Assembly: GCA_041674405.1 (NCBI GenBank)
Contig: JBAYVT010000003.1
Coordinates: 30,001 to 62,000, forward strand
Direction: 5' to 3'
Length of the DNA: 32,000 nt
Source: Patescibacteria group bacterium
GTDB lineage: Bacteria; Patescibacteriota; UBA1384; XYA2-FULL-43-10
Shown: positions 3,509 to 25,981 of the stretch, in pieces
Position numbering within the stretch: position 1 is the stretch's first letter
Layout: every line of letters begins with the position of its first letter
Made by a program: the position numbers and the translations under genes
Notes under the pieces: generated by a model
The model's database searches: none
What the model was told of the DNA's origin: nothing
The model's input: the letters and a program-made list of their open reading frames with translations, nothing else

Positions 3509-4738
3509 ATGGACCTAAAGAAAAAACCCAAAGATTTTTCAACTCTTTTTCTCGATATGAACGCTTATTTTGCCTCTATTGAGCAGCAGGTCAACCCACC
3601 TCTTCGCGGCCAACCTGTCGGTATCACGCCCTATACCGGCCCAACCGGCTGCGTAATTGCGCGTTCATACGAGGCCAAGGATTGGGGAGTGGGGACGGGG
3701 GACCTGGTCCGCGATGCTAGAAAAAAATGCCCCAAAATCCAAATTATCGAGGCACGACCAGCGCTTTATCAGCTCTATCACCGGGAAATTTTGAAAGTTT
3801 TGAAGGCTCACTCTCCGTATGTCACTCCCCTTTCGATTGACGAATTCTTAATTCATCTTACGGGCAGTGATTGTTCAGAAGTAAATTCGCTCAAGATGGC
3901 GGAAAGTCTGAAGAACGGAATCACAAAAAGTGGCGACTACCTAAAGTGTTCAATCGGTATCGGTCCAAATTATTTTCTTTCAAAGGTAGCCGGAGAGTCA
4001 AAAAAACCAGACGGCCTTACTGTTATAAAGTTAAATAAACTAGATGAATTTTACAAACATTTAAGATTGCGTGATTTACCAGGAATTAATCACAGAATGG
4101 AAGCCCAGCTAGCGCATCGTGGTATATACTCATCTTCTGATTTTTTTCAAGCAAATTTAGTTTCCATGTCGCGAATGTTCGGCCACATTGGCAAAACCTG
4201 GTATTACCGATTGCGTGGATATAATATTGATGAATTTGAAGTCAAGACTAAAACCATCGGGCACTCGCATGTTTTACCACCGGATTTCAGGACTCGTAAT
4301 CAAGCAGTGGCAGTGATCGAAAAATTAGTAGCAAAATCCGGCTATCGGCTTCGCAATCAGGGCTACTTTGCTGCCGGGGTTGCTATTTCTGTTGGTTTTA
4401 TGGAAGGCGGAGGGTTTCACAAGACCAAAAAGTGCACCGCTTTTTCTGATAATCGGACATTTCTCCTGGAAGTAAAAAGTCTACTTAAAAATTGCCAAAT
4501 TTGGCGCACACCGCTTTATGTTGCCGTCTCTGCCTTCAATTTATCTCGGCAGACGGGGCGGCAAATCTCGATCTTTTCAGAAATAGAGCGTTCACGACGG
4601 ATTTCCGAAGCGATGGATGAGGTGAATGATGAGTTTGGTGCAAGCACGCTGTTTACCGGCTCGCTTTTCCCCGCAAAAGACACAGCGCCTGATCGCATTC
4701 CATTTGGGAGAGTAAGATATGAAATACTCAATTTTTGA
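3509..4738 (+). CDS. dinB: Y-family DNA polymerase IV
   Basis: The N-terminal FLDMNAYFASIEQQ…LRGQPVGI and the LSIDEFLI motif are characteristic of the DinB/ImpB family. The 409 aa length also fits. Confidence 0.85.
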   Translation: MDLKKKPKDFSTLFLDMNAYFASIEQQVNPPLRGQPVGITPYTGPTGCVIARSYEAKDWGVGTGDLVRDARKKCPKIQIIEARPALYQLYHREILKVLKAHSPYVTPLSIDEFLIHLTGSDCSEVNSLKMAESLKNGITKSGDYLKCSIGIGPNYFLSKVAGESKKPDGLTVIKLNKLDEFYKHLRLRDLPGINHRMEAQLAHRGIYSSSDFFQANLVSMSRMFGHIGKTWYYRLRGYNIDEFEVKTKTIGHSHVLPPDFRTRNQAVAVIEKLVAKSGYRLRNQGYFAAGVAISVGFMEGGGFHKTKKCTAFSDNRTFLLEVKSLLKNCQIWRTPLYVAVSAFNLSRQTGRQISIFSEIERSRRISEAMDEVNDEFGASTLFTGSLFPAKDTAPDRIPFGRVRYEILNF

Positions 4739-7297: not shown

Positions 7298-7894
7298 TTA
7301 TTCTGAGATCAAATCTTCCTTAAACAAAATTCCACGATCAATGAATTCTTCAATAATATTTTGTTCTCCCTGAAAAATTTCCGAGATCATAATTACGACA
7401 TTTTCAGAAACTCCAAGCCTTTCAGATAATTCCGATATCTCCCGCGTGCATTCAAACGGATAAACATGCACGCTTTTTTGAATCTGAATAAAGCCAGCGT
7501 TTTTAATTGCTTTACGAAAAATATCTCTCTCATCCCGCATCTTCTCGGGAATATCAAATATTACAACTCTCCATTTTCGATCCCAAATCTCCGATCGTTT
7601 CACCCGAATATCAAAAGTCATTATTTTTTTGATATGGTTAATTCCCCTGGGTGTAATTTCAAGATATTTTTCTTTATCCCGGGTAAATGATTCAATATAT
7701 CCGTGCTTTTTGAGATAATAGATCTTTTGGCGTAGATTGATTTTAGAATTTTCGATTTCATCTTTTGCTGCCATAGCTGATTTTCTATAAACGGGGCTTG
7801 CTTCAAAAAAAGGCATAACCGTGGCATCGAATAATGCTAAAAGAATCTCTTTCGCGCTCAATTTTGCAATTTCTAAACTTTCTCTTTTTAACAT
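7298..7894 (-). CDS. PaaX-like transcriptional regulator (winged helix plus Cas2-fold C-domain)
   Basis: WDRKWRVVIFDIPEKMRDERDIFRKAIKNAGFIQIQKSVHVYP matches the PaaX C-domain pattern (W-x-W-x-V-x-FDIPE…R…GF…Q-SVW-x-P). I prefer the ATG at 7894 (MLKRESLE…); the ORF track extends to TTG 7972. Confidence 0.65.
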   Translation of the reverse strand: MLKRESLEIAKLSAKEILLALFDATVMPFFEASPVYRKSAMAAKDEIENSKINLRQKIYYLKKHGYIESFTRDKEKYLEITPRGINHIKKIMTFDIRVKRSEIWDRKWRVVIFDIPEKMRDERDIFRKAIKNAGFIQIQKSVHVYPFECTREISELSERLGVSENVVIMISEIFQGEQNIIEEFIDRGILFKEDLISE

Positions 7895-7895
7895 T

Positions 7896-7933
7896 TGTAA
7901 CAATTTTATCACGATCGTGATAAAATTGTTACA
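7896..7933. promoter_or_regulatory. Perfect 38-bp palindrome (42-nt element, copy 2) abutting the PaaX-like start codon; candidate operator
   Basis: TGTAACAATTTTATCACGATCGTGATAAAATTGTTACA equals its own reverse complement. It lies in the divergent region between the 7894(-) and 8031(+) genes, where no terminator is expected. Confidence 0.6.
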
Positions 7934-7963
7934 TTTTTGTTTTAGATCATTTGGATTATTATG

Positions 7964-7992
7964 TTGACACAAAAATAGCTTTGAACGATAAT
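7964..7992 (+). promoter_or_regulatory. Candidate promoter TTGACA-N17-GATAAT for the 8031 operon
   Basis: Hexamers lie at 7964-7969 and 7987-7992. SD AGGAGGG precedes the ATG at 8031. Confidence 0.5.
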
Positions 7993-19234: not shown

Positions 19235-19311
19235 TGCGGGGTGGAGCAGCCCGGTAGCTCGCATGGCTCATAACCATGAGGTCGTTGGTTCAAATCCAAC
19301 CCCCGCGACCA
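19235..19311 (+). tRNA. tRNA-Met (CAU), initiator-like
   Basis: GCGGGGTGGAGCAGCCCGGTAGCTC…CTCATAA…GGTCGTTGGTTCAAATCCAACCCCCGCGACCA closely parallels bacterial tRNA-fMet. The 1-72 pair is weak (U-G). There are only two G-C pairs next to the anticodon loop rather than three. Confidence 0.85.
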
Positions 19312-19385: not shown

Positions 19386-19462
19386 GGCAGGGTAGCTCAG
19401 ATGGTTAGAGCGTGGGACTCATAAGCCCGAGGTCGTGGGTTCGATCCCCACCCCTGCTACCA
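19386..19462 (+). tRNA. tRNA-Met (CAU), elongator-like
   Basis: GGCAGGGTAGCTCAGATGGTTAGAGC…ACTCATAAG…GGTCGTGGGTTCGATCCCCAC…CCCTGCTACCA. The D-arm resembles elongator Met. The A31-G39 and G1-U72 pairs are non-canonical. Confidence 0.8.
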
Positions 19463-19470
19463 GCAAATAA

Positions 19471-19500
19471 TATGGCGATTCGCAAGAATCGTTATTTTAT
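19471..19500. terminator. Hairpin between the convergent tRNA operon and the 19529 gene
   Basis: Stem ggcgattc/gaatcgtt (two G-U pairs) with loop gcaa, followed by attttatttg. Confidence 0.5.
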
Positions 19501-19528: not shown

Positions 19529-20479
19529 CTAGTCAGATTCTTTACGACTCGAGATCAAATAAAGAAGAATATAATATATTACAAGCTCGGCAAGTTCGAG
19601 CCAAACAAAATATTGGCACCATTTGACCGGATTGTAATAATCATGCAAAATCCAATGGACTAAGTACAATACCACGCCGCCAAAAATCGGCCAAACCCAT
19701 CCGAACACGAACCCATTTGCACGATAATTAAAATAGCCATATACAATTAGAAATAAAGCGTAAACGATAAACAAAATCCACCACCAATAGCAATAGATCA
19801 GCGAGCTTGTTTCTGCTCCCAGCGCTTCCCCATCCTCCGACTCATCTTGCACAAAATTCCCATTCGGATTTGTTGATGCCTGGATGTTTTCAACTGGTGT
19901 GATTTCCGCCAACTGATTGCCAGTACTAAAATTTTGGTTGTTAAATTGGTCAAAGTTATTTGTAGATTCAGATTGGTCTGTGCTCTCGTTACCCACTACG
20001 AAGTTAAATGATGAAGTCAAAGTCCCTTGGTAATCATTTCCAACCCCAGCGGGCAAAATAGCAATGAAATCAATATTGACAGAGCTCCCTGGGGCTATAG
20101 AACCGACTATCACATTACTTTGGGGACTTTTTGCGATATCAGCAATCGTCTTATTCCAAACAGGAACCCCATATACTCTTGGTTCCAGCCTCAACATATT
20201 GGCAAGAGATCCGAGTGGACCATCAGTGGCGATTGAGAAAGAATGTGCGACGTTCCCAGTATTTTCAACAGTTACCGTCTTGACCGTTTCAAATCCTGGC
20301 GCAATGTTGGTTTCGTTAAAAAGTGGGCCAGTCCCATCATAGGTAATTTTCAACACGCCCGCATTTACTTCTGCAGCGTTCACTCTATAGGCAAAAACAA
20401 AAGTTGAGATCAGGCCAACTATTAGCGAGGCTACCAACAGACACAAGATTAAATTTTGTTTTAGGAAGCTCTTCATCAT
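19529..20479 (-). CDS. TasA/camelysin-like domain protein with C-terminal Trp-rich 4-TM anchor
   Basis: N-terminal TM, then FAYRVNAAEVNAGVLKITYD and NIAPGFETVKTVTVENTGN, paralogous to the 21736 gene. A Q/N/S-rich linker follows, then YCYWWWILFIVYALFLIVYGYF…WILHDYYNPVKW. The start ATGA overlaps the upstream stop. Confidence 0.6.
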   Translation of the reverse strand: MMKSFLKQNLILCLLVASLIVGLISTFVFAYRVNAAEVNAGVLKITYDGTGPLFNETNIAPGFETVKTVTVENTGNVAHSFSIATDGPLGSLANMLRLEPRVYGVPVWNKTIADIAKSPQSNVIVGSIAPGSSVNIDFIAILPAGVGNDYQGTLTSSFNFVVGNESTDQSESTNNFDQFNNQNFSTGNQLAEITPVENIQASTNPNGNFVQDESEDGEALGAETSSLIYCYWWWILFIVYALFLIVYGYFNYRANGFVFGWVWPIFGGVVLYLVHWILHDYYNPVKWCQYFVWLELAELVIYYILLYLISSRKESD

Positions 20480-21105
20480 GCTCCTGGCGTCGGTGTTGTT
20501 AAATCAATAAAATCTGAAGCAAGATCCGAATCAAACCCAAGAGAACTTCTCGACAACGAATGACCAGCGGTAACATCGGGACATGCTGGGTTCCATACAG
20601 CGGTATCTGTACCATAATTCATTTGATCGACAGTAGTCCCAGAAGGGTTATTTAAGATTATTCTATCTCCGGCATTGCTAAGCCAATCAGTATTCCCGCC
20701 AAGGTTGATTGTCACTATATTGTCCCCGCTTGGGTTGCCCCAAAGCTGCCAAGTATTGTTATCATGTGACAACAAAACGAAACCATGAGCCGGAATACTC
20801 ACATCCGGATTGATGGTTTTAGTATAGTAGTTGTCTGAGATAGACCAACCTTTTATGTTAATTTCGACATCATTTGGATTGTACAATTCGATCCATTCAT
20901 TTTTTCCCTCGTCACCGTGGAGAGCATCAACATCATAGTAGACTTCGTTAATTACGACTCTATCTGGCGACGGTGTTTCCCAGGTTCCGGTTTGAAAAGT
21001 ATTATCTGAAACTTCAACTTGATCTGTAAAAACTGCGTTTGTGGCAAAACTTGCCAAACACATTACTGCGGAAATAATGAACGCGCTTTTAATAATTTTT
21101 AACAT
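20476..21105 (-). CDS. Secreted lamin-tail-domain (LTD) protein with SipW-cognate-type signal
   Basis: MLKIIKSAFIISAVMCLASFATNAVFTDQVEVSDNTFQTGTW, then LTD-like VVINEVYYD…NEWIELYNPNDVEINIKGWSISD. The start lies 1 nt after the sipW-like stop. Confidence 0.65.
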   Translation of the reverse strand: MLKIIKSAFIISAVMCLASFATNAVFTDQVEVSDNTFQTGTWETPSPDRVVINEVYYDVDALHGDEGKNEWIELYNPNDVEINIKGWSISDNYYTKTINPDVSIPAHGFVLLSHDNNTWQLWGNPSGDNIVTINLGGNTDWLSNAGDRIILNNPSGTTVDQMNYGTDTAVWNPACPDVTAGHSLSRSSLGFDSDLASDFIDLTTPTPGA

Positions 21106-21106
21106 G

Positions 21107-21667
21107 TCATTCCCCTTTGTTCTTAGTCGTCTTTACGGTCGCCTTTTTCGCCTTTTTGCGATCGGCAATTTCTTTCTTAATCTTGGATATCTCATCATAT
21201 ACGATAATCGTTGCTGGAACAATTATGATTATAATTAATCCTGGAACTGTCCTGGAAAAGCCGATGGGATAACCAATATACGGAACCTTCAAAACCACTT
21301 TTCCAACTACATTATCTTGCAGGACATAGAATTCGTCCGGAACACTATTTGCATCCCCTTTGGTCCGGTATTTTACCGTACCATTGTCGGTAGATAGTTC
21401 AACAATTCTATGAGTTATCTTTTCGTTGGGCTTTTCAATACTTTTATAAGTAATAATATCATTAACGTAATAATTATTTTCAGACTTCGTTATTATCAAA
21501 CTACCCGTTTTGATTGCTGGTTCCATTGATCCAGACTGGACGGTTAAAAATCTGACACCCCCAATAGATAATTTTGCCAAAATCGCTGCGACTGCAAACA
21601 AAATTACGATTGCAAATACAATCCAAGTAATGATCTTCCAGTAATCTACCTTTTTTACATTAGTCAT
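21107..21667 (-). CDS. sipW: Signal peptidase I, SipW (archaeal/ER) type
   Basis: N-terminal TM, catalytic box VQSGSMEPAIKTGSLI, ITHRIVE (His-type, not Lys-type), GDAN and a C-terminal TM (GLIIIIIVPATIIVY) as in SipW. Confidence 0.8.
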   Translation of the reverse strand: MTNVKKVDYWKIITWIVFAIVILFAVAAILAKLSIGGVRFLTVQSGSMEPAIKTGSLIITKSENNYYVNDIITYKSIEKPNEKITHRIVELSTDNGTVKYRTKGDANSVPDEFYVLQDNVVGKVVLKVPYIGYPIGFSRTVPGLIIIIIVPATIIVYDEISKIKKEIADRKKAKKATVKTTKNKGE

Positions 21668-21698
21668 ATTAATTTTTTTCTGCTTTAAAACCCAGTTA

Positions 21699-21719
21699 GG
21701 CCGCTTTCATAAAGCGGCC
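21699..21719 (-). terminator. 9-bp GC-rich hairpin between the TasA-like gene and the sipW-like gene (attenuator or stabiliser)
   Basis: ggccgcttt/cat/aaagcggcc lies 17 nt after the TasA-like stop. The downstream T-tract is weak, so termination is probably partial. Confidence 0.5.
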
Positions 21720-21735
21720 CTTAAGGTTTTTAAAC

Positions 21736-22263
21736 CTACAGACTGCTTTGAGCATCCATAACTATATTGAATCCAGTTGCAAGACCTTGGACACTATCAC
21801 CAGTTGCAAGCGGAAGAGTGACCTTGACCCAAATTCTTTGTGACCAACCAGCAGGCATTGGATTGAAAGCAAAAGCACTTGAGTTTATCCTATTTGCGGA
21901 ACCAGTAATACCATCCAGGGAACCTGAATAAATTAAAGCACCCGATGAATCATTATTTCTCATCTCAACTGTTAGAGCATCATAAAGAGCGTTGTCCATT
22001 GTTGTATCTACGTGGACAAAATAATATGCTGGCAACGTCCCGATATTCATGACGTCCATATATTTATTTGTTGTATCACCAGGCTTCATGTTAGAAACCG
22101 AGAATGGTAGACCAGCCTCTTTGTTAATTTGTATTTTCAAAGTGCCTGTCGCAAACGAATTCCCATTAACTGACGCTTGGCTCGTAAACACTGCCGATGT
22201 TGCCCCAATTGCAAGGGCAGCAACAATTGCGATCACTGATAGACTTTTTACAATTCTTAACAT
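21736..22263 (-). CDS. TasA/camelysin-family secreted protein (putative major fibre subunit)
   Basis: The SipW-cognate-type N-terminus MLRIVKSLSVIAIVAALAIGATSAVFTSQASVNGNSFATGTLKI resembles B. subtilis TasA (…AAFNDIKSKDATFASGTLDL). SD GAAGGAG precedes the ATG at 22263; the ORF track extends to 22299. Confidence 0.75.
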   Translation of the reverse strand: MLRIVKSLSVIAIVAALAIGATSAVFTSQASVNGNSFATGTLKIQINKEAGLPFSVSNMKPGDTTNKYMDVMNIGTLPAYYFVHVDTTMDNALYDALTVEMRNNDSSGALIYSGSLDGITGSANRINSSAFAFNPMPAGWSQRIWVKVTLPLATGDSVQGLATGFNIVMDAQSSL

Positions 22264-22441
22264 AATAACTCCTTCTTTCATAATTTTGAAATTATTCATA
22301 AGGCATCGACCACCCCCAAAGTGGCCTTATGTTAAGCTAACATTAAAAACCAATGAGCACAAACATTCCAAATTGCAAAGACAATTTGTTTTTCATGAGC
22401 TAAATATATGCCCGGCAATATATACCTGTCAATAGTTGAGT

Positions 22442-22933: not shown

Positions 22934-24745
22934 TTACCATCTTCTGGATTTTTTATTATTTTTTGGCGCTACTTTTTTGGCTGAGTCTTTCTTTACTGGA
23001 GCCGCCACAATTTTCTTTTCTTTAACTACAGCCGTTGCCGCAGTTCCTTCGCTATCGCCGCCAAACCAGTAAAAATATCCGCCCGTGGCCGCACCAGCCA
23101 ACAGAATCAAGATGAAGAGTATGATCCACGGGGTCCAGTTGATTTTATTATCTTCCGAATCATTACTGGTATCCTCAGCGGCTTTTATCTGCCCATTTTG
23201 GTCAAGATCGGATTGCTCTTCACCAGAAGGAGCCGCTGTAGCAGCTTGGGCTGTAGCAGGAGCTGTGAAAGAAACAGCCGTGGCATTACTGGTGGTTACA
23301 CTTGGCCCAACGACCGGAACTGGTGCAGTTAATTTGACAGAAACAACTTCAGAGCTTGAGGTTTCAGTCGCGCTCTTAGCAACAACCTTGACGGAATAAT
23401 CACCATAAGAAGCAACTGACACATTTTCCTTGTAAGCATTACCTTTATCATCAGCAGCAACCGAAATGGTTTTGGAAATAATTCCGTTCACATAAATTTC
23501 GTATGAAGTAACACCGCCACCGACCCCGTTGAAGGAAACATTTATACTCTTTCCATCACCCGGAGTAGCCGCAACAACAGGAGTAGGCAAATAGTCTACA
23601 TGCGCATTAATTACATTCGAAATCGCCGACTCATTCCCAGCATTGTCGAAAGCTTTTACGTAATAGATAAAATCGCCATTACCTGGCATATCTGTATATT
23701 TCGCATCCGTAATCAATGCCAAGTTAAGAGAAACATCGGTTGGGCTTGGGACTTCAGTGCTTAAAATTCTATAAACATTGTACCCGGCAATGCCATTTGC
23801 GTCGGTCGAATCACTCCATGCAAGATCAACTTCATTCTTCACTACATTGCCGGCCAAATCCGTAATCGCTGTTGGAACCACGGTGTCGACGGTGAATGAC
23901 GAAATTCCGGCCATTTTTGAATCCTTTTCGCCATCAGAAGCTATGACATACCAGTAATACTGGCCGTCGGATAATTTATGTGGATTTGTGCTCTGAAAAC
24001 TTGTAGAAGTTAAGCCGGTTTTGTGAATCTTGGCGGCACTATCACCAACTTTATACACGAATAATTCATAAGTAATGGCGTCATTATCCGAATCCGTCGA
24101 TGGTTGCCATACAAATTCTGGATTTTGGCTCTTAACATACGAGCTATCTGCCGGCGATGTCATCACGGGAGCAGTTGGGGCAGTATCTTCAGAAACAAAT
24201 GTCACCTTGAAGTTCACAAACGAGTTGTTGCCATCATCAGAATTTTTTCCTAACAGCTTGATATTAACATCACTCTTTCCATAGAAATGATAATCATCAT
24301 TTAGAGAATAATAGCCCGATAGCTTACCATTATCTGTGCTGGTCTTATCAGCCTTTTTTGTTTGGTCAATACTTGGAATAATCTCAGTTGCACCTGCGCC
24401 TTGTGATATTTCATAAGTAGCTTGGTGCGTGTGATTATTCCACACTCTCCACTCTGCTTCAATTTTATAAATTCCCGGCAGATCGACTGAATTATCCAAG
24501 GCATCATCCGCTTCTACGTATGCGCCTACCACACTACCATCAGTGTAAAGTTCTTTTCCATAAGCGTTGGTGTAAGTATGCCACTCAGCTGACGGAAAAG
24601 CAGTAACACCAGAAACACCAATAATTTTTTCCGGTGCGGCTGCCATGGCCGGTTTGGCGGTTAAAATTCCTGTATAAAGCGATGCGGGTATCATCAGCAT
24701 TGTTGCAAGCAGGCATACCACCCACTTTTTAGTTCTTAATCTCAT
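22934..24745 (-). CDS. Large secreted surface protein with FN3/Ig-like repeats and C-terminal TM anchor
   Basis: Signal peptide MRLRTKKWVVCLLATMLMIPASLYTGILTAKPAMA. FN3-like segments (EFVWQPSTDSDNDAITYELFVY; VDLAWSDSTDANGIAGYNVYRI). C-terminal TM WIILFILILLAGAATGGYFYWF followed by a Lys-rich tail. SD GAGAGAGG precedes the ATG at 24745; the ORF track extends to GTG 24793. Confidence 0.7.
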   Translation of the reverse strand: MRLRTKKWVVCLLATMLMIPASLYTGILTAKPAMAAAPEKIIGVSGVTAFPSAEWHTYTNAYGKELYTDGSVVGAYVEADDALDNSVDLPGIYKIEAEWRVWNNHTHQATYEISQGAGATEIIPSIDQTKKADKTSTDNGKLSGYYSLNDDYHFYGKSDVNIKLLGKNSDDGNNSFVNFKVTFVSEDTAPTAPVMTSPADSSYVKSQNPEFVWQPSTDSDNDAITYELFVYKVGDSAAKIHKTGLTSTSFQSTNPHKLSDGQYYWYVIASDGEKDSKMAGISSFTVDTVVPTAITDLAGNVVKNEVDLAWSDSTDANGIAGYNVYRILSTEVPSPTDVSLNLALITDAKYTDMPGNGDFIYYVKAFDNAGNESAISNVINAHVDYLPTPVVAATPGDGKSINVSFNGVGGGVTSYEIYVNGIISKTISVAADDKGNAYKENVSVASYGDYSVKVVAKSATETSSSEVVSVKLTAPVPVVGPSVTTSNATAVSFTAPATAQAATAAPSGEEQSDLDQNGQIKAAEDTSNDSEDNKINWTPWIILFILILLAGAATGGYFYWFGGDSEGTAATAVVKEKKIVAAPVKKDSAKKVAPKNNKKSRRW

Positions 24746-25129
24746 AAAACCTCTCTCATTGTTAAATTTTAATACAGACAAAAAAGCTAACACAAAACGT
24801 TAACACTTTAGCAATCTAGATTGTTAAATTCCCTCCAGAATACGAGAAACCTCGTTTGGTCTAGGTCTGCCCTCACTTTTTCGGGAATTTTTGATGATTT
24901 CAGCTATTTATTTTTCCTAAAGCAAATTTGCCTTAAGATGAGTTCACTTTCGCCATATCCTACCCATAGTCGAAGTATCACACTTTATCATACTTTTTAC
25001 TGACCATAAGCAGTGCTTTTCTGGCTGAGGAGTAGAATATCAATCATGTTATCGCTTGTCAAATTTATATTTTTTCTAGCCCCCACCTTATAAATAATAA
25101 GTTATCCACAAGAGATATCACACAGTAAC

Positions 25130-25187: not shown

Positions 25188-25766
25188 TTAGGGAATATTA
25201 AAAGATGCAATTTTAGAAACAATATTGTCAAAAATCTGAAGCACAACAGGCTTTTTGCGGCCAAACATATTTGTAACCATATAAGTATCATGCGAACCAT
25301 TATTATCTTTATAAGCCCCCTTTACCACGCCGATTCCCATGTCAGAATAATCAGGGTTTAAAATATTGTCCCTATGGGCCGGTGATTTCATCCAAGCATT
25401 TACTGTGCCTTCGGCAGTATTAAAATCCATAGCAAGGTTTTCTCCAGCATAAAGATAATTATATCCTGCGCTTATAATAAAATCCCACGGGGCAAGATCA
25501 AACGCATAGTGTTCAAAATAGTTTCGATTTACCATATCCAAAGACTTATTCTTGGCGGCCTGATCGAGGCTTTTATCAATCCTAAGAGGAATTAAACCGT
25601 TTGCAGTTCTTTCGGAATTGATCAATAGCTCAATATTCTCCGGAGTAATTTCTGAGGCAAAAGCACCAGAAATTGAAGTAAAAATAACAATAGCAGCAAC
25701 AATTAGGCCAAAATATGTTTTGAATTTTTTAAAATTATTTACCATTTTTGTATTTGTTTTATTCAT
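25188..25766 (-). CDS. CAP/SCP/PR-1 (YkwD-like) domain secreted protein
   Basis: N-terminal TM/signal, then NSERTANGL…LDQAAKNKSLDMVNRNYFEH…GENLA…AWMKSPAHRDNILNPDYSDMGIGV. Confidence 0.8.
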   Translation of the reverse strand: MNKTNTKMVNNFKKFKTYFGLIVAAIVIFTSISGAFASEITPENIELLINSERTANGLIPLRIDKSLDQAAKNKSLDMVNRNYFEHYAFDLAPWDFIISAGYNYLYAGENLAMDFNTAEGTVNAWMKSPAHRDNILNPDYSDMGIGVVKGAYKDNNGSHDTYMVTNMFGRKKPVVLQIFDNIVSKIASFNIP

Positions 25767-25906: not shown

Positions 25907-25981
25907 GGGCCCATAGCTCAGTGGTAGAGCGCCCGGCTCATAACCGGTTGGTCGCAGGTCCGATCCCTGCTGGGCCCACCA
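25907..25981 (+). tRNA. tRNA-Ile2-like (anticodon CAU, probable lysidine substrate)
   Basis: GGGCCCATAGCTCAGTGGTAGAGCG-CCCGG-CTCATAA-CCGG…GGTCGCAGGTCCGATCCCTGCTGGGCCCACCA. The 3' half closely resembles E. coli ileX, including the C4-G69 and C5-G68 pairs. The T-loop reads TCCGATC, which is unusual at position 55. Confidence 0.75.

Follow-up and report, generated by a model that had tools for sequence, protein, structure and literature searches.

A four-gene TasA-superfamily cassette in a Patescibacteria genome, probably encoding a cell-anchored fibre

Introduction

In the TasA fibre of Bacillus subtilis, the donor strand (amino acids 28–38 of the mature N-terminus) completes the next subunit (PMC9674648), and in the crystal of the TasA monomer high B-factors were found at N-terminal residues 28–41 (PMC10151520). 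In the accessory protein TapA, a near-copy of the TasA strand (AFHDI versus AFNDI) precedes a complete Ig domain; TapA gives its N-terminus to TasA and starts assembly (PMC9674648, PMC10151520). The model for the Tat-fimbriae (Tafi) of haloarchaea has TafC at the tip, as the initiator from which the first strand comes, with TafE as an adaptor, TafA as the shaft and TafD as a dedicated peptidase (PMC11821415, PMC12337348). TafF, the terminator and anchor, has an N-domain that resembles a pilin and three transmembrane helices at its C-terminus, and its signal is of the Sec type, where the pilins have Tat signals (PMC11821415, PMC12337348). Besides a signal peptidase I (SPase I), the AbpX loci encode minor subunits and tips as well as anchors of the SLH or LPXTG type (bioRxiv 10.64898/2026.01.04.697558, 2026 preprint), and proteins of the PF12389 family, to which TasA belongs, were noted in Patescibacteria in an earlier survey (PMC9245690). 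We analysed a stretch of 32,000 nucleotides (the window) of a 152-kb contig (JBAYVT010000003.1) from a Patescibacteria metagenome-assembled genome (MAG). Four genes on its minus strand, here called A to D, encode a TasA-family subunit, a SipW-like signal peptidase and two proteins that share different parts of the subunit. An original prediction, made from the DNA sequence alone, had read this cassette as the operon of a three-component fibre.

Patescibacteria are mostly uncultured, and many of them are episymbionts; to our knowledge, the attachment organelles known from them are essentially type IV pili. The proteins of the cassette could be assigned to their families with near certainty. We propose that they probably form a TasA-superfamily fibre that is polar and anchored to the cell, in which a tip, a shaft and an anchor would be joined by donor-strand exchange outside the membrane.

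Results and Discussion

The four tightly packed minus-strand open reading frames of the original prediction were all recovered. Gene A (21736–22299) is an open reading frame of 187 residues if read from an upstream ATG at 22299, and of 175 residues (21736–22263) if read from the ATG at 22263. The sequence AGGAG stands five nucleotides upstream of the latter start, in keeping with the strong Shine-Dalgarno sequence claimed for the 175-residue form, and the NCBI annotation also has this form, under the name ‘TasA family protein’. Gene B (21107–21667, 186 residues) encodes a SipW-like (ER/archaeal-type) SPase I. Gene C (20476–21105, 209 residues) encodes a protein with a SipW-cognate signal, a copy of the donor strand and a lamin-tail domain (LTD), and gene D (19529–20479, 316 residues, or 315 from the second ATG) encodes a membrane protein. 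The coupling that had been claimed for the last three genes was seen in both places, as a single nucleotide between the stop of B and the start of C, and as an ATGA overlap of the C stop with the D start. The block is more than a chance arrangement: homologues of each protein number in the tens to hundreds, and 11 other loci show the same order of genes.

Protein A matched PF12389 (TasA / Peptidase_M73) with 36.4 bits (cutoff 22.5), a match that covers the N-terminal half only, and TIGR04088, the model of the SipW-cognate signal, with 26.6 bits (cutoff 19). A total of 1,195 relatives were found at E ≤ 1e-3 among 1.84 billion representatives. A profile of 51 A-family sequences matched the TasA structures 5OF1/8AUR with E 3e-13 over positions 32–174, nearly the full length, and AbpX (9SJ2) more weakly, with E 5e-5; the match of A to TIGR04090 was weak and below cutoff (E 1.7e-6). 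The AlphaFold2 (AF2) model of A (pLDDT 85.8) was compared with known structures by Foldseek, and the top match was the fibre form of TasA (8AUR_A; E 3.9e-6, probability 1.00, TMq 0.53), followed by the donor-strand pilins FimG, FimF, Saci_0406 (the Sulfolobus thread subunit), CfaB and PapA. These results bear out the view of A as a TasA/camelysin-type subunit.

The protein begins with a SipW-cognate signal (residues 1–24), which is followed by a predicted donor strand and then by an acceptor domain of the jelly-roll type (residues ~40–175). By homology, A is predicted to be cut at TSA|VF, after Ala24, and VFTSQASVNGNSF (residues 25–37; 22153..22191, minus strand) is predicted to be the donor strand, equivalent to TasA residues 28–39. 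In the HMMER alignment F37 of A falls on F39 of TasA. The donor segment was undocked in the AF2 monomer, with pLDDT <50 at residues 24–33.

An alternative explanation is that there is no fibre, and that A, C and D are beta-sandwich surface or secreted proteins of unrelated function, such as adhesins or camelysin-like proteins, which share a peptidase and do not polymerise. A is linked to the polymerising TasA by homology only, it shares little sequence identity with B. subtilis TasA (a PDB search with the single sequence reached TasA at E 0.4 only, and a profile was required), and many PF12389 proteins are uncharacterised, all of which would agree with this explanation. We consider it very unlikely, given the nearly full-length profile match to TasA and a fold closest to the fibre form. 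A camelysin-type metalloprotease was also rejected: A and the ectodomain of D have one His apiece, and neither contains HExxH or another metalloprotease motif.

Protein B scored 109.8 bits against TIGR02228 (archaeal/ER-type SPase I, S26B; cutoff 51.85) and 123.5 bits against the equivalog model of Bacillus SipW, NF046067, which is under the cutoff of 190. By these scores, B is SipW-like and not an orthologue-level SipW. We found the boxes SGSMEP (Ser47), THR (His86) and KGDAN (Asp105) in B, and an alignment with human SEC11A/C (E 6e-9) extended across the SGSMEP, HR and GDxN boxes, indicating a Ser/His and not a Ser/Lys enzyme. Hydrophobic transmembrane helices were found at each end of the protein, one N-terminal and one C-terminal. 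The boxes and the C-terminal helix on which the original prediction had based a SipW-type Ser/His peptidase are thus present, with the Ser and His aligned to those of SEC11A/C.

Protein C matched the LTD family PF00932 with 64.6 bits (cutoff 34.3) over residues 45–165 (20611–20973), and TIGR04088 with 26.6 bits (cutoff 19), as expected of the fusion of signal and lamin-tail domain that had been predicted. Its signal (residues 1–24) is followed by a copy of the donor strand, VFTDQVEVSDNTF (residues 25–37; 20995–21033), then by QTGTW and the LTD. It has neither a TasA acceptor domain nor an anchor. We confirmed the near-identity of the N-termini of A and C, which share MLxIxKS...ATxAVFTxQ..V..NxFxTGT and both lie above the TIGR04088 cutoff; a six-frame scan of the window gave only these two such motifs. 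A begins with MLRIVKS and C with MLKIIKS, with no twin-arginine (RR) motif.

The layout of C was found in 79 homologues, several of which are named ‘SipW-like signal peptide’ by JGI, and in 33 aligned members of the family the signal and strand lead directly into the LTD. A C-family profile found no match among PDB sequences. We compared hand-extracted strand segments of A and C (n=12), and observed that they are closer within than between genomes (8.8 versus 7.5 of 18 positions, permutation p 0.008). This likeness may lend modest support to a groove common to both strands, in a comparison where groove binding and peptidase recognition are not separable.

Protein D proved to be related to A through its acceptor domain. 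On its own it matched PF12389 with 14.2 bits (E 0.04) and did not reach the cutoff of 22.5, and Pfam searches with 24 D-family members gave weak PF12389 matches in four, none at cutoff, while matches to the transmembrane block were scattered noise. Alignment of the A and D families by hhalign gave a probability of 99.5% and E 3.2e-22 over 171 columns (D residues 1–172), with the common motifs xG(T/V)L, N(M/I)xPG, VxNxG and LPxxxGNxYQG. We found 31 homologues of D (34–54% identity to D), some of them annotated as Berkelbacteria.

The signal peptide of D is of the ordinary type (residues 1–35, predicted cut VNA|AEV) and did not match TIGR04088. In all 24 D-family members examined, the Ala at -1 (Ala35) is invariant and the residues at -3 are small. 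Throughout the family only four residues lie between the predicted cut and AG(V)L, the motif with which the sandwich begins, and mature D would therefore lack a strand of ~10 residues. D, counted as a third substrate in the original prediction, does not carry the SipW-cognate N-terminus; its signal is of the generic AxA type.

The acceptor domain of D (residues 36–162, 19994–20374) is TasA-like, and is followed by a disordered spacer rich in N, Q, S and E (residues 163–225, 19805–19993) and by a membrane block (residues 226–316, 19532–19804). The AF2 model showed a signal helix, a sandwich at residues 35–141, a spacer with pLDDT <50, and helices at 232–253, 262–279 and 286–315 as assigned by DSSP. 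A hydropathy scan gave the same three transmembrane helices. The hhalign result upholds the original view of D as a diverged paralogue, and its membrane block has three transmembrane helices in place of the four that had been counted. Two cysteines, Cys230 (about 19790–19792) and Cys288 (about 19616–19618), are nearly invariant and lie at the outer ends of the first and third transmembrane helices. The pair is common to the variants of the three-helix block in the loci compared below, including L018–L021, L025 and L027, and both cysteines are absent together in P0034 and P0035. Such a pattern fits a disulfide pair, and together with a conserved HWxLHDYYxPxKWC loop it suggests a disulfide-stapled module with a role past anchoring.

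The three proteins other than the peptidase thus fall into three classes: C has a donor strand only, A has a donor strand and an acceptor domain, and D has an acceptor domain only, joined to an anchor. This split predicts one polar arrangement, C-A(n)-D, and is hard to explain without strand exchange, which argues further against the three proteins being non-polymerising.

We surveyed the synteny of the block in related genomes. Eleven other loci, from several genomic contexts, have the order A-B-C-D (L005, L007, L009, L011, L014, L016, L018, L021 and L025–L027, where L denotes our comparison loci), and no locus with a full homologue of D departs from it (L005/L006/L012, L007/L013, L009, L011, L014 and L016). 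L025, L026 and L027 were obtained via C homologues, and L017, L018 and L021 are more remote loci. The order in L017 is a TasA-like gene, a peptidase-LTD gene, a D-like gene and then a further TasA-like gene.

In the fourth gene, the acceptor domain is constant and the anchor variable. Most loci have the three-helix block with the Cys pair and a C(F/P)WWW motif. The D-equivalent of L026 (L026:4520-5131) is short and consists of a signal, a TasA-like acceptor domain, and LPATG followed by a hydrophobic segment and KKK, which is a classical sortase signal. In that of L017, from a Levybacteria MAG (L017:5860-6873), RTX-like GGxGxD/N repeats follow the acceptor domain, and there is no membrane segment. 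An acceptor domain that stays constant while its anchor is exchanged is what one would expect of an attachment subunit.

In three loci (L017:4520-5755, L019:30-1568 and L021:1221-4364) the peptidase and the LTD protein form one continuous reading frame. In the L017 and L019 fusions the LTD part has its own cognate signal and strand (for example ...THAAFTDTVQVSGVSFSTGDW...), and the L021 fusion has an insert of ~750 residues between peptidase and LTD and a degenerate signal. These would be enzyme-substrate fusions that require self-cleavage. The fusions tie C to B as its substrate.

The GC-rich hairpin that had been noted after gene A was confirmed. It is a two-tier RNA hairpin in the A-B spacer (21679..21742, minus strand), with an inner 10-bp GC-rich stem at 21698–21720 inside a longer outer stem, and it is more stable than shuffled sequences (z = -4.66). 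A simple terminator scan did not call it, its U-run being short and displaced. The A-B spacer measures 50–110 nucleotides in all loci, and B, C and D abut or overlap. All ten of the other loci tested (L005, L007, L009, L014, L016, L018 and L024–L027) have a strong two-tier hairpin in this spacer (z -4.1 to -8.8), the stems of which are unrelated in sequence. As far as it was checked, though no Rfam search was made, the hairpin is not a known element of the Rfam kind. Since the structure recurs without conservation of sequence, selection appears to act on the structure itself. The hairpin is likely to be either a partial (leaky) terminator or a stabiliser of the mRNA or its 5' fragment, and would lead to an excess of A over B, C and D. 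A layout that favours excess of one subunit is typical of pilus operons, which would again speak against proteins that merely share a peptidase.

A candidate sigma-70-like promoter, TTGACA-18 nt-TATATT, lies ~140 nucleotides upstream of gene A (22403..22432, minus strand), and by consensus match alone it is the best site in the region, with 11/12 matches. At the other end, a weak terminator-like hairpin with a 6-bp stem and a poor T tail lies past the D stop (19476..19491, minus strand), and is a possible operon end, to which we attach low confidence.

We propose the following course of assembly. Transcription would start at the promoter upstream of A, and the conserved hairpin would pass part of the transcripts into the translationally coupled genes B, C and D, leaving the shaft subunit in excess. 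Sec would export A and C, and B would cut both after Ala24, baring the near-identical strands VFTSQASVNGNSF and VFTDQVEVSDNTF. Having a strand and no acceptor, C could only donate. Like TapA in the TasA fibre and TafC in Tafi, it would complete the first A subunit by occupying its groove. C would in this way end at the distal tip, where its lamin-tail domain would be the likely adhesin. Each complemented A would then give its own strand to the next A, building the shaft. D, with an ordinary AxA cleavage site that lies four residues ahead of the sandwich, would have a groove and no strand; it could accept only, and would cap the proximal end. Its ~60-residue disordered spacer and three-helix membrane block would tie the fibre to the cell, and attachment to a host or another surface may be its purpose. 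The three-component fibre of subunit, LTD tip and membrane anchor that was originally proposed remains the best reading and its family assignments hold, with the correction that C, and not D, would be the analogue of TapA.

Several observations weigh against this reading. L024, the closest relative, has identical flanks and carries A-B-C followed by a tRNA-Met pair, with no D (L024:5636-6629); the anchor is dispensable, lost or encoded elsewhere in that genome. The transmembrane block of D, with its W, H, Y and Cys motifs, is conserved far beyond the need of a passive anchor, which hints at another role. Foldseek with the D model was unspecific, with no match at E ≤ 0.001 and TasA (8AUR) at rank 13. 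In light of the peptidase-LTD fusions, and of the Ig-like domain at the C-terminus of TafD (PMC11821415), the LTD may be a module that goes with the peptidase and not a tip. The N-terminal likeness of A and C within genomes could result from recognition by the peptidase and not from a common groove, and the cleavage sites are predicted from homology only.

Some of these observations would also suit a different system, in which A forms released, TasA-like matrix fibres like those of Bacillus biofilms, C is an independent SipW-dependent protein, secreted or on the surface, and D is a membrane assembly platform or chaperone and not the terminal anchor. The LTD of C might then bind extracellular DNA, the host surface or the peptidase, and D might hold A subunits transiently. 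Such a system would accommodate the retention of A-B-C in L024 and the strong conservation of the D block across distant loci, and the three fusions and the TafD domain would place the LTD close to the membrane. TapA, in addition, has been reported to serve as chaperone or initiator without being a stable component of the fibre (PMC10151520). We nevertheless regard released fibres as unlikely. C keeps the donor-strand sequence beyond its cleavage site in 33 family members, and its strand tracks that of A within genomes. The interchangeable anchors (three-helix block, LPATG and RTX-like repeats) point to attachment as the common function of D, and since the cognate cleavage motif persists in the fusions of L017 and L019, the LTD could still be released there.

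The anchored fibre that we favour can be compared with four known systems. Like B. subtilis tapA-sipW-tasA, the cassette has a dedicated SipW-type Ser/His peptidase adjoining its substrates, signals of the TIGR04088 type, a jelly-roll subunit with an N-terminal donor strand, and an accessory protein that copies this strand before an unrelated Ig-like domain (TapA there, C here). Unlike the B. subtilis operon, it begins with the subunit gene, followed by the hairpin and then the peptidase, which itself falls under the Bacillus SipW equivalog cutoff. The accessory domain is an LTD and not a TapA fold, the subunit is shorter (151 versus 234 mature residues), and there is a fourth component, an acceptor-only TasA paralogue with a three-helix transmembrane anchor, which is absent in Bacillus. 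The original prediction had cast D as the replacement of TapA; this does not agree with the layouts, as it is C that is built like TapA, and D has no counterpart in B. subtilis.

By analogy of architecture, the closest mechanistic precedent appears to be the haloarchaeal Tafi and not Bacillus. As described, Tafi also has a donor-only tip, a shaft pilin, a pilin-like terminator with three C-terminal transmembrane helices and a signal that differs from the pilin signals, and a dedicated SPase in the cluster, sometimes with an Ig-like domain. Tafi is, however, archaeal and exported by Tat, whereas the cassette is bacterial and has Sec-type signals without twin arginines. The tip domain is an LTD here and laminin-G-like in Tafi, and we found no match to TafG/DUF5305 in the cassette or its flanks, nor was the TafB regulator present there. 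A separate adaptor pilin is also missing from the window. Two TasA-like paralogues precede the peptidase in L007 (L007:3458-3994 and 4150-4716) and in L025 (L025:2980-3564 and 3623-4297), and the two could be a shaft and an adaptor, as TafA and TafE are.

Loci of the AbpX/BsaA type (Bacillota and Chloroflexota; TIGR04090) resemble the cassette in having an SPase I, several TasA-like paralogues, predicted tips and surface anchors, a likeness that extends to the LPATG anchor on the D-equivalent of L026. They differ in that the AbpX-associated peptidase has ten transmembrane helices and B has two, in that the A-family profile is closer to TasA (E 3e-13) than to AbpX (E 5e-5), and in that no cyclic di-GMP or two-component regulators were found near the cassette. 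With Tafi (PMC11821415, PMC12337348) and the AbpX loci already described, the architecture is, in general terms, not the uncharacterised one that it had been taken for.

Chaperone-usher pili (Fim/Pap) are likewise polar donor-strand-exchange fibres with a specialised tip and terminator and an excess of the major subunit, and the A model resembles FimG, FimF and PapA. Their machinery is not homologous, and the cassette has no chaperone, usher or outer membrane to work with. The strand polarity of tip and terminator is also reversed, FimH having a groove only and C a strand only.

The cassette is flanked by housekeeping genes (DivIC, TilS, FtsH, MurJ, LepA, ClpB and UvrA), and GC content is even. 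These flanks, the even GC content and the same context in a Berkelbacteria MAG led us to reject a prophage or mobile-element origin.

Upstream of the cassette, 22934–24793 (minus strand) encodes a 619-residue protein with a signal peptide, Ig/fn3-like repeats, and a C-terminal transmembrane segment with a basic tail. A large Ig/fn3-like protein and a CAP-domain protein often lie just upstream of the cassette (25188–25766, minus strand, in the window; also L005, L009, L024 and L026), and may be its surface partners. In L026 a 661-residue LTD-containing protein sits after the cassette. We rejected it as a homologue of the 619-residue protein, since BLASTP gave a weak fn3-like patch alone (E 0.04).

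Three tRNA-Met (CAT) genes lie within 7 kb, at 19235–19311, 19386–19462 and 25907–25981 (plus strand). Two of the three form a tandem pair immediately downstream of D, on the strand opposite to it, and L024 has this pair as well. The window also encodes, at 7298–7972 (minus strand), a protein with a PaaX_M Cas2-like domain, and another is encoded near the L027 cassette (L027:8723-9268). Patescibacteria-type cassettes (TasA-like, SipW, LTD and a D-like protein with the CFWW block) were also seen in L018, L019 and L020, in MAGs labelled ‘uncultured Gammaproteobacteria bacterium’, which suggests mislabelled or chimeric bins.

Conclusions

The logic of tip, shaft and anchor has been proposed for Tafi, and PF12389 proteins were known from Patescibacteria; the cassette is a bacterial counterpart of the former and is not unprecedented. 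What is new is the distribution of roles, with donor and acceptor in A, donor only in C and acceptor only in D. Compared with the known systems, the cassette is that of a bacterium of the Candidate Phyla Radiation, is Sec-dependent with a TIGR04088 signal, has an LTD at the tip, lacks TafG and TafB, and includes a D family that had no annotation. Among the papers searched, none linked SipW with lamin-tail domains or with the Candidate Phyla Radiation.

As a tentative view, which we hold to be possible and not probable, the tip-shaft-anchor plan, together with a dedicated ER-type peptidase, may be the ancestral design of the TasA superfamily, in archaea (Tafi) and monoderm bacteria alike, with the released matrix of Bacillus as a derived, anchor-less form. 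Patescibacteria would in that case have an LTD-tipped pilus, independent of type IV pili, for attachment to hosts or surfaces, and the conserved block of D, with its three helices and Cys pair, would be a module active in assembly or termination and not a passive anchor.

A compact and conserved cassette for a second kind of surface fibre provides targets for cryo-electron tomography, metaproteomics and heterologous expression. With the roles split over three small proteins, the rules of initiation and termination in chaperone-free donor-strand exchange become testable in a minimal system. The analysis also gives a likely function to two protein families, D, annotated as ‘hypothetical’, and C, annotated as ‘LTD’ or ‘ribosomally synthesized peptide with SipW-like signal’, and the cassette links the bacterial TasA systems to the archaeal Tafi design.

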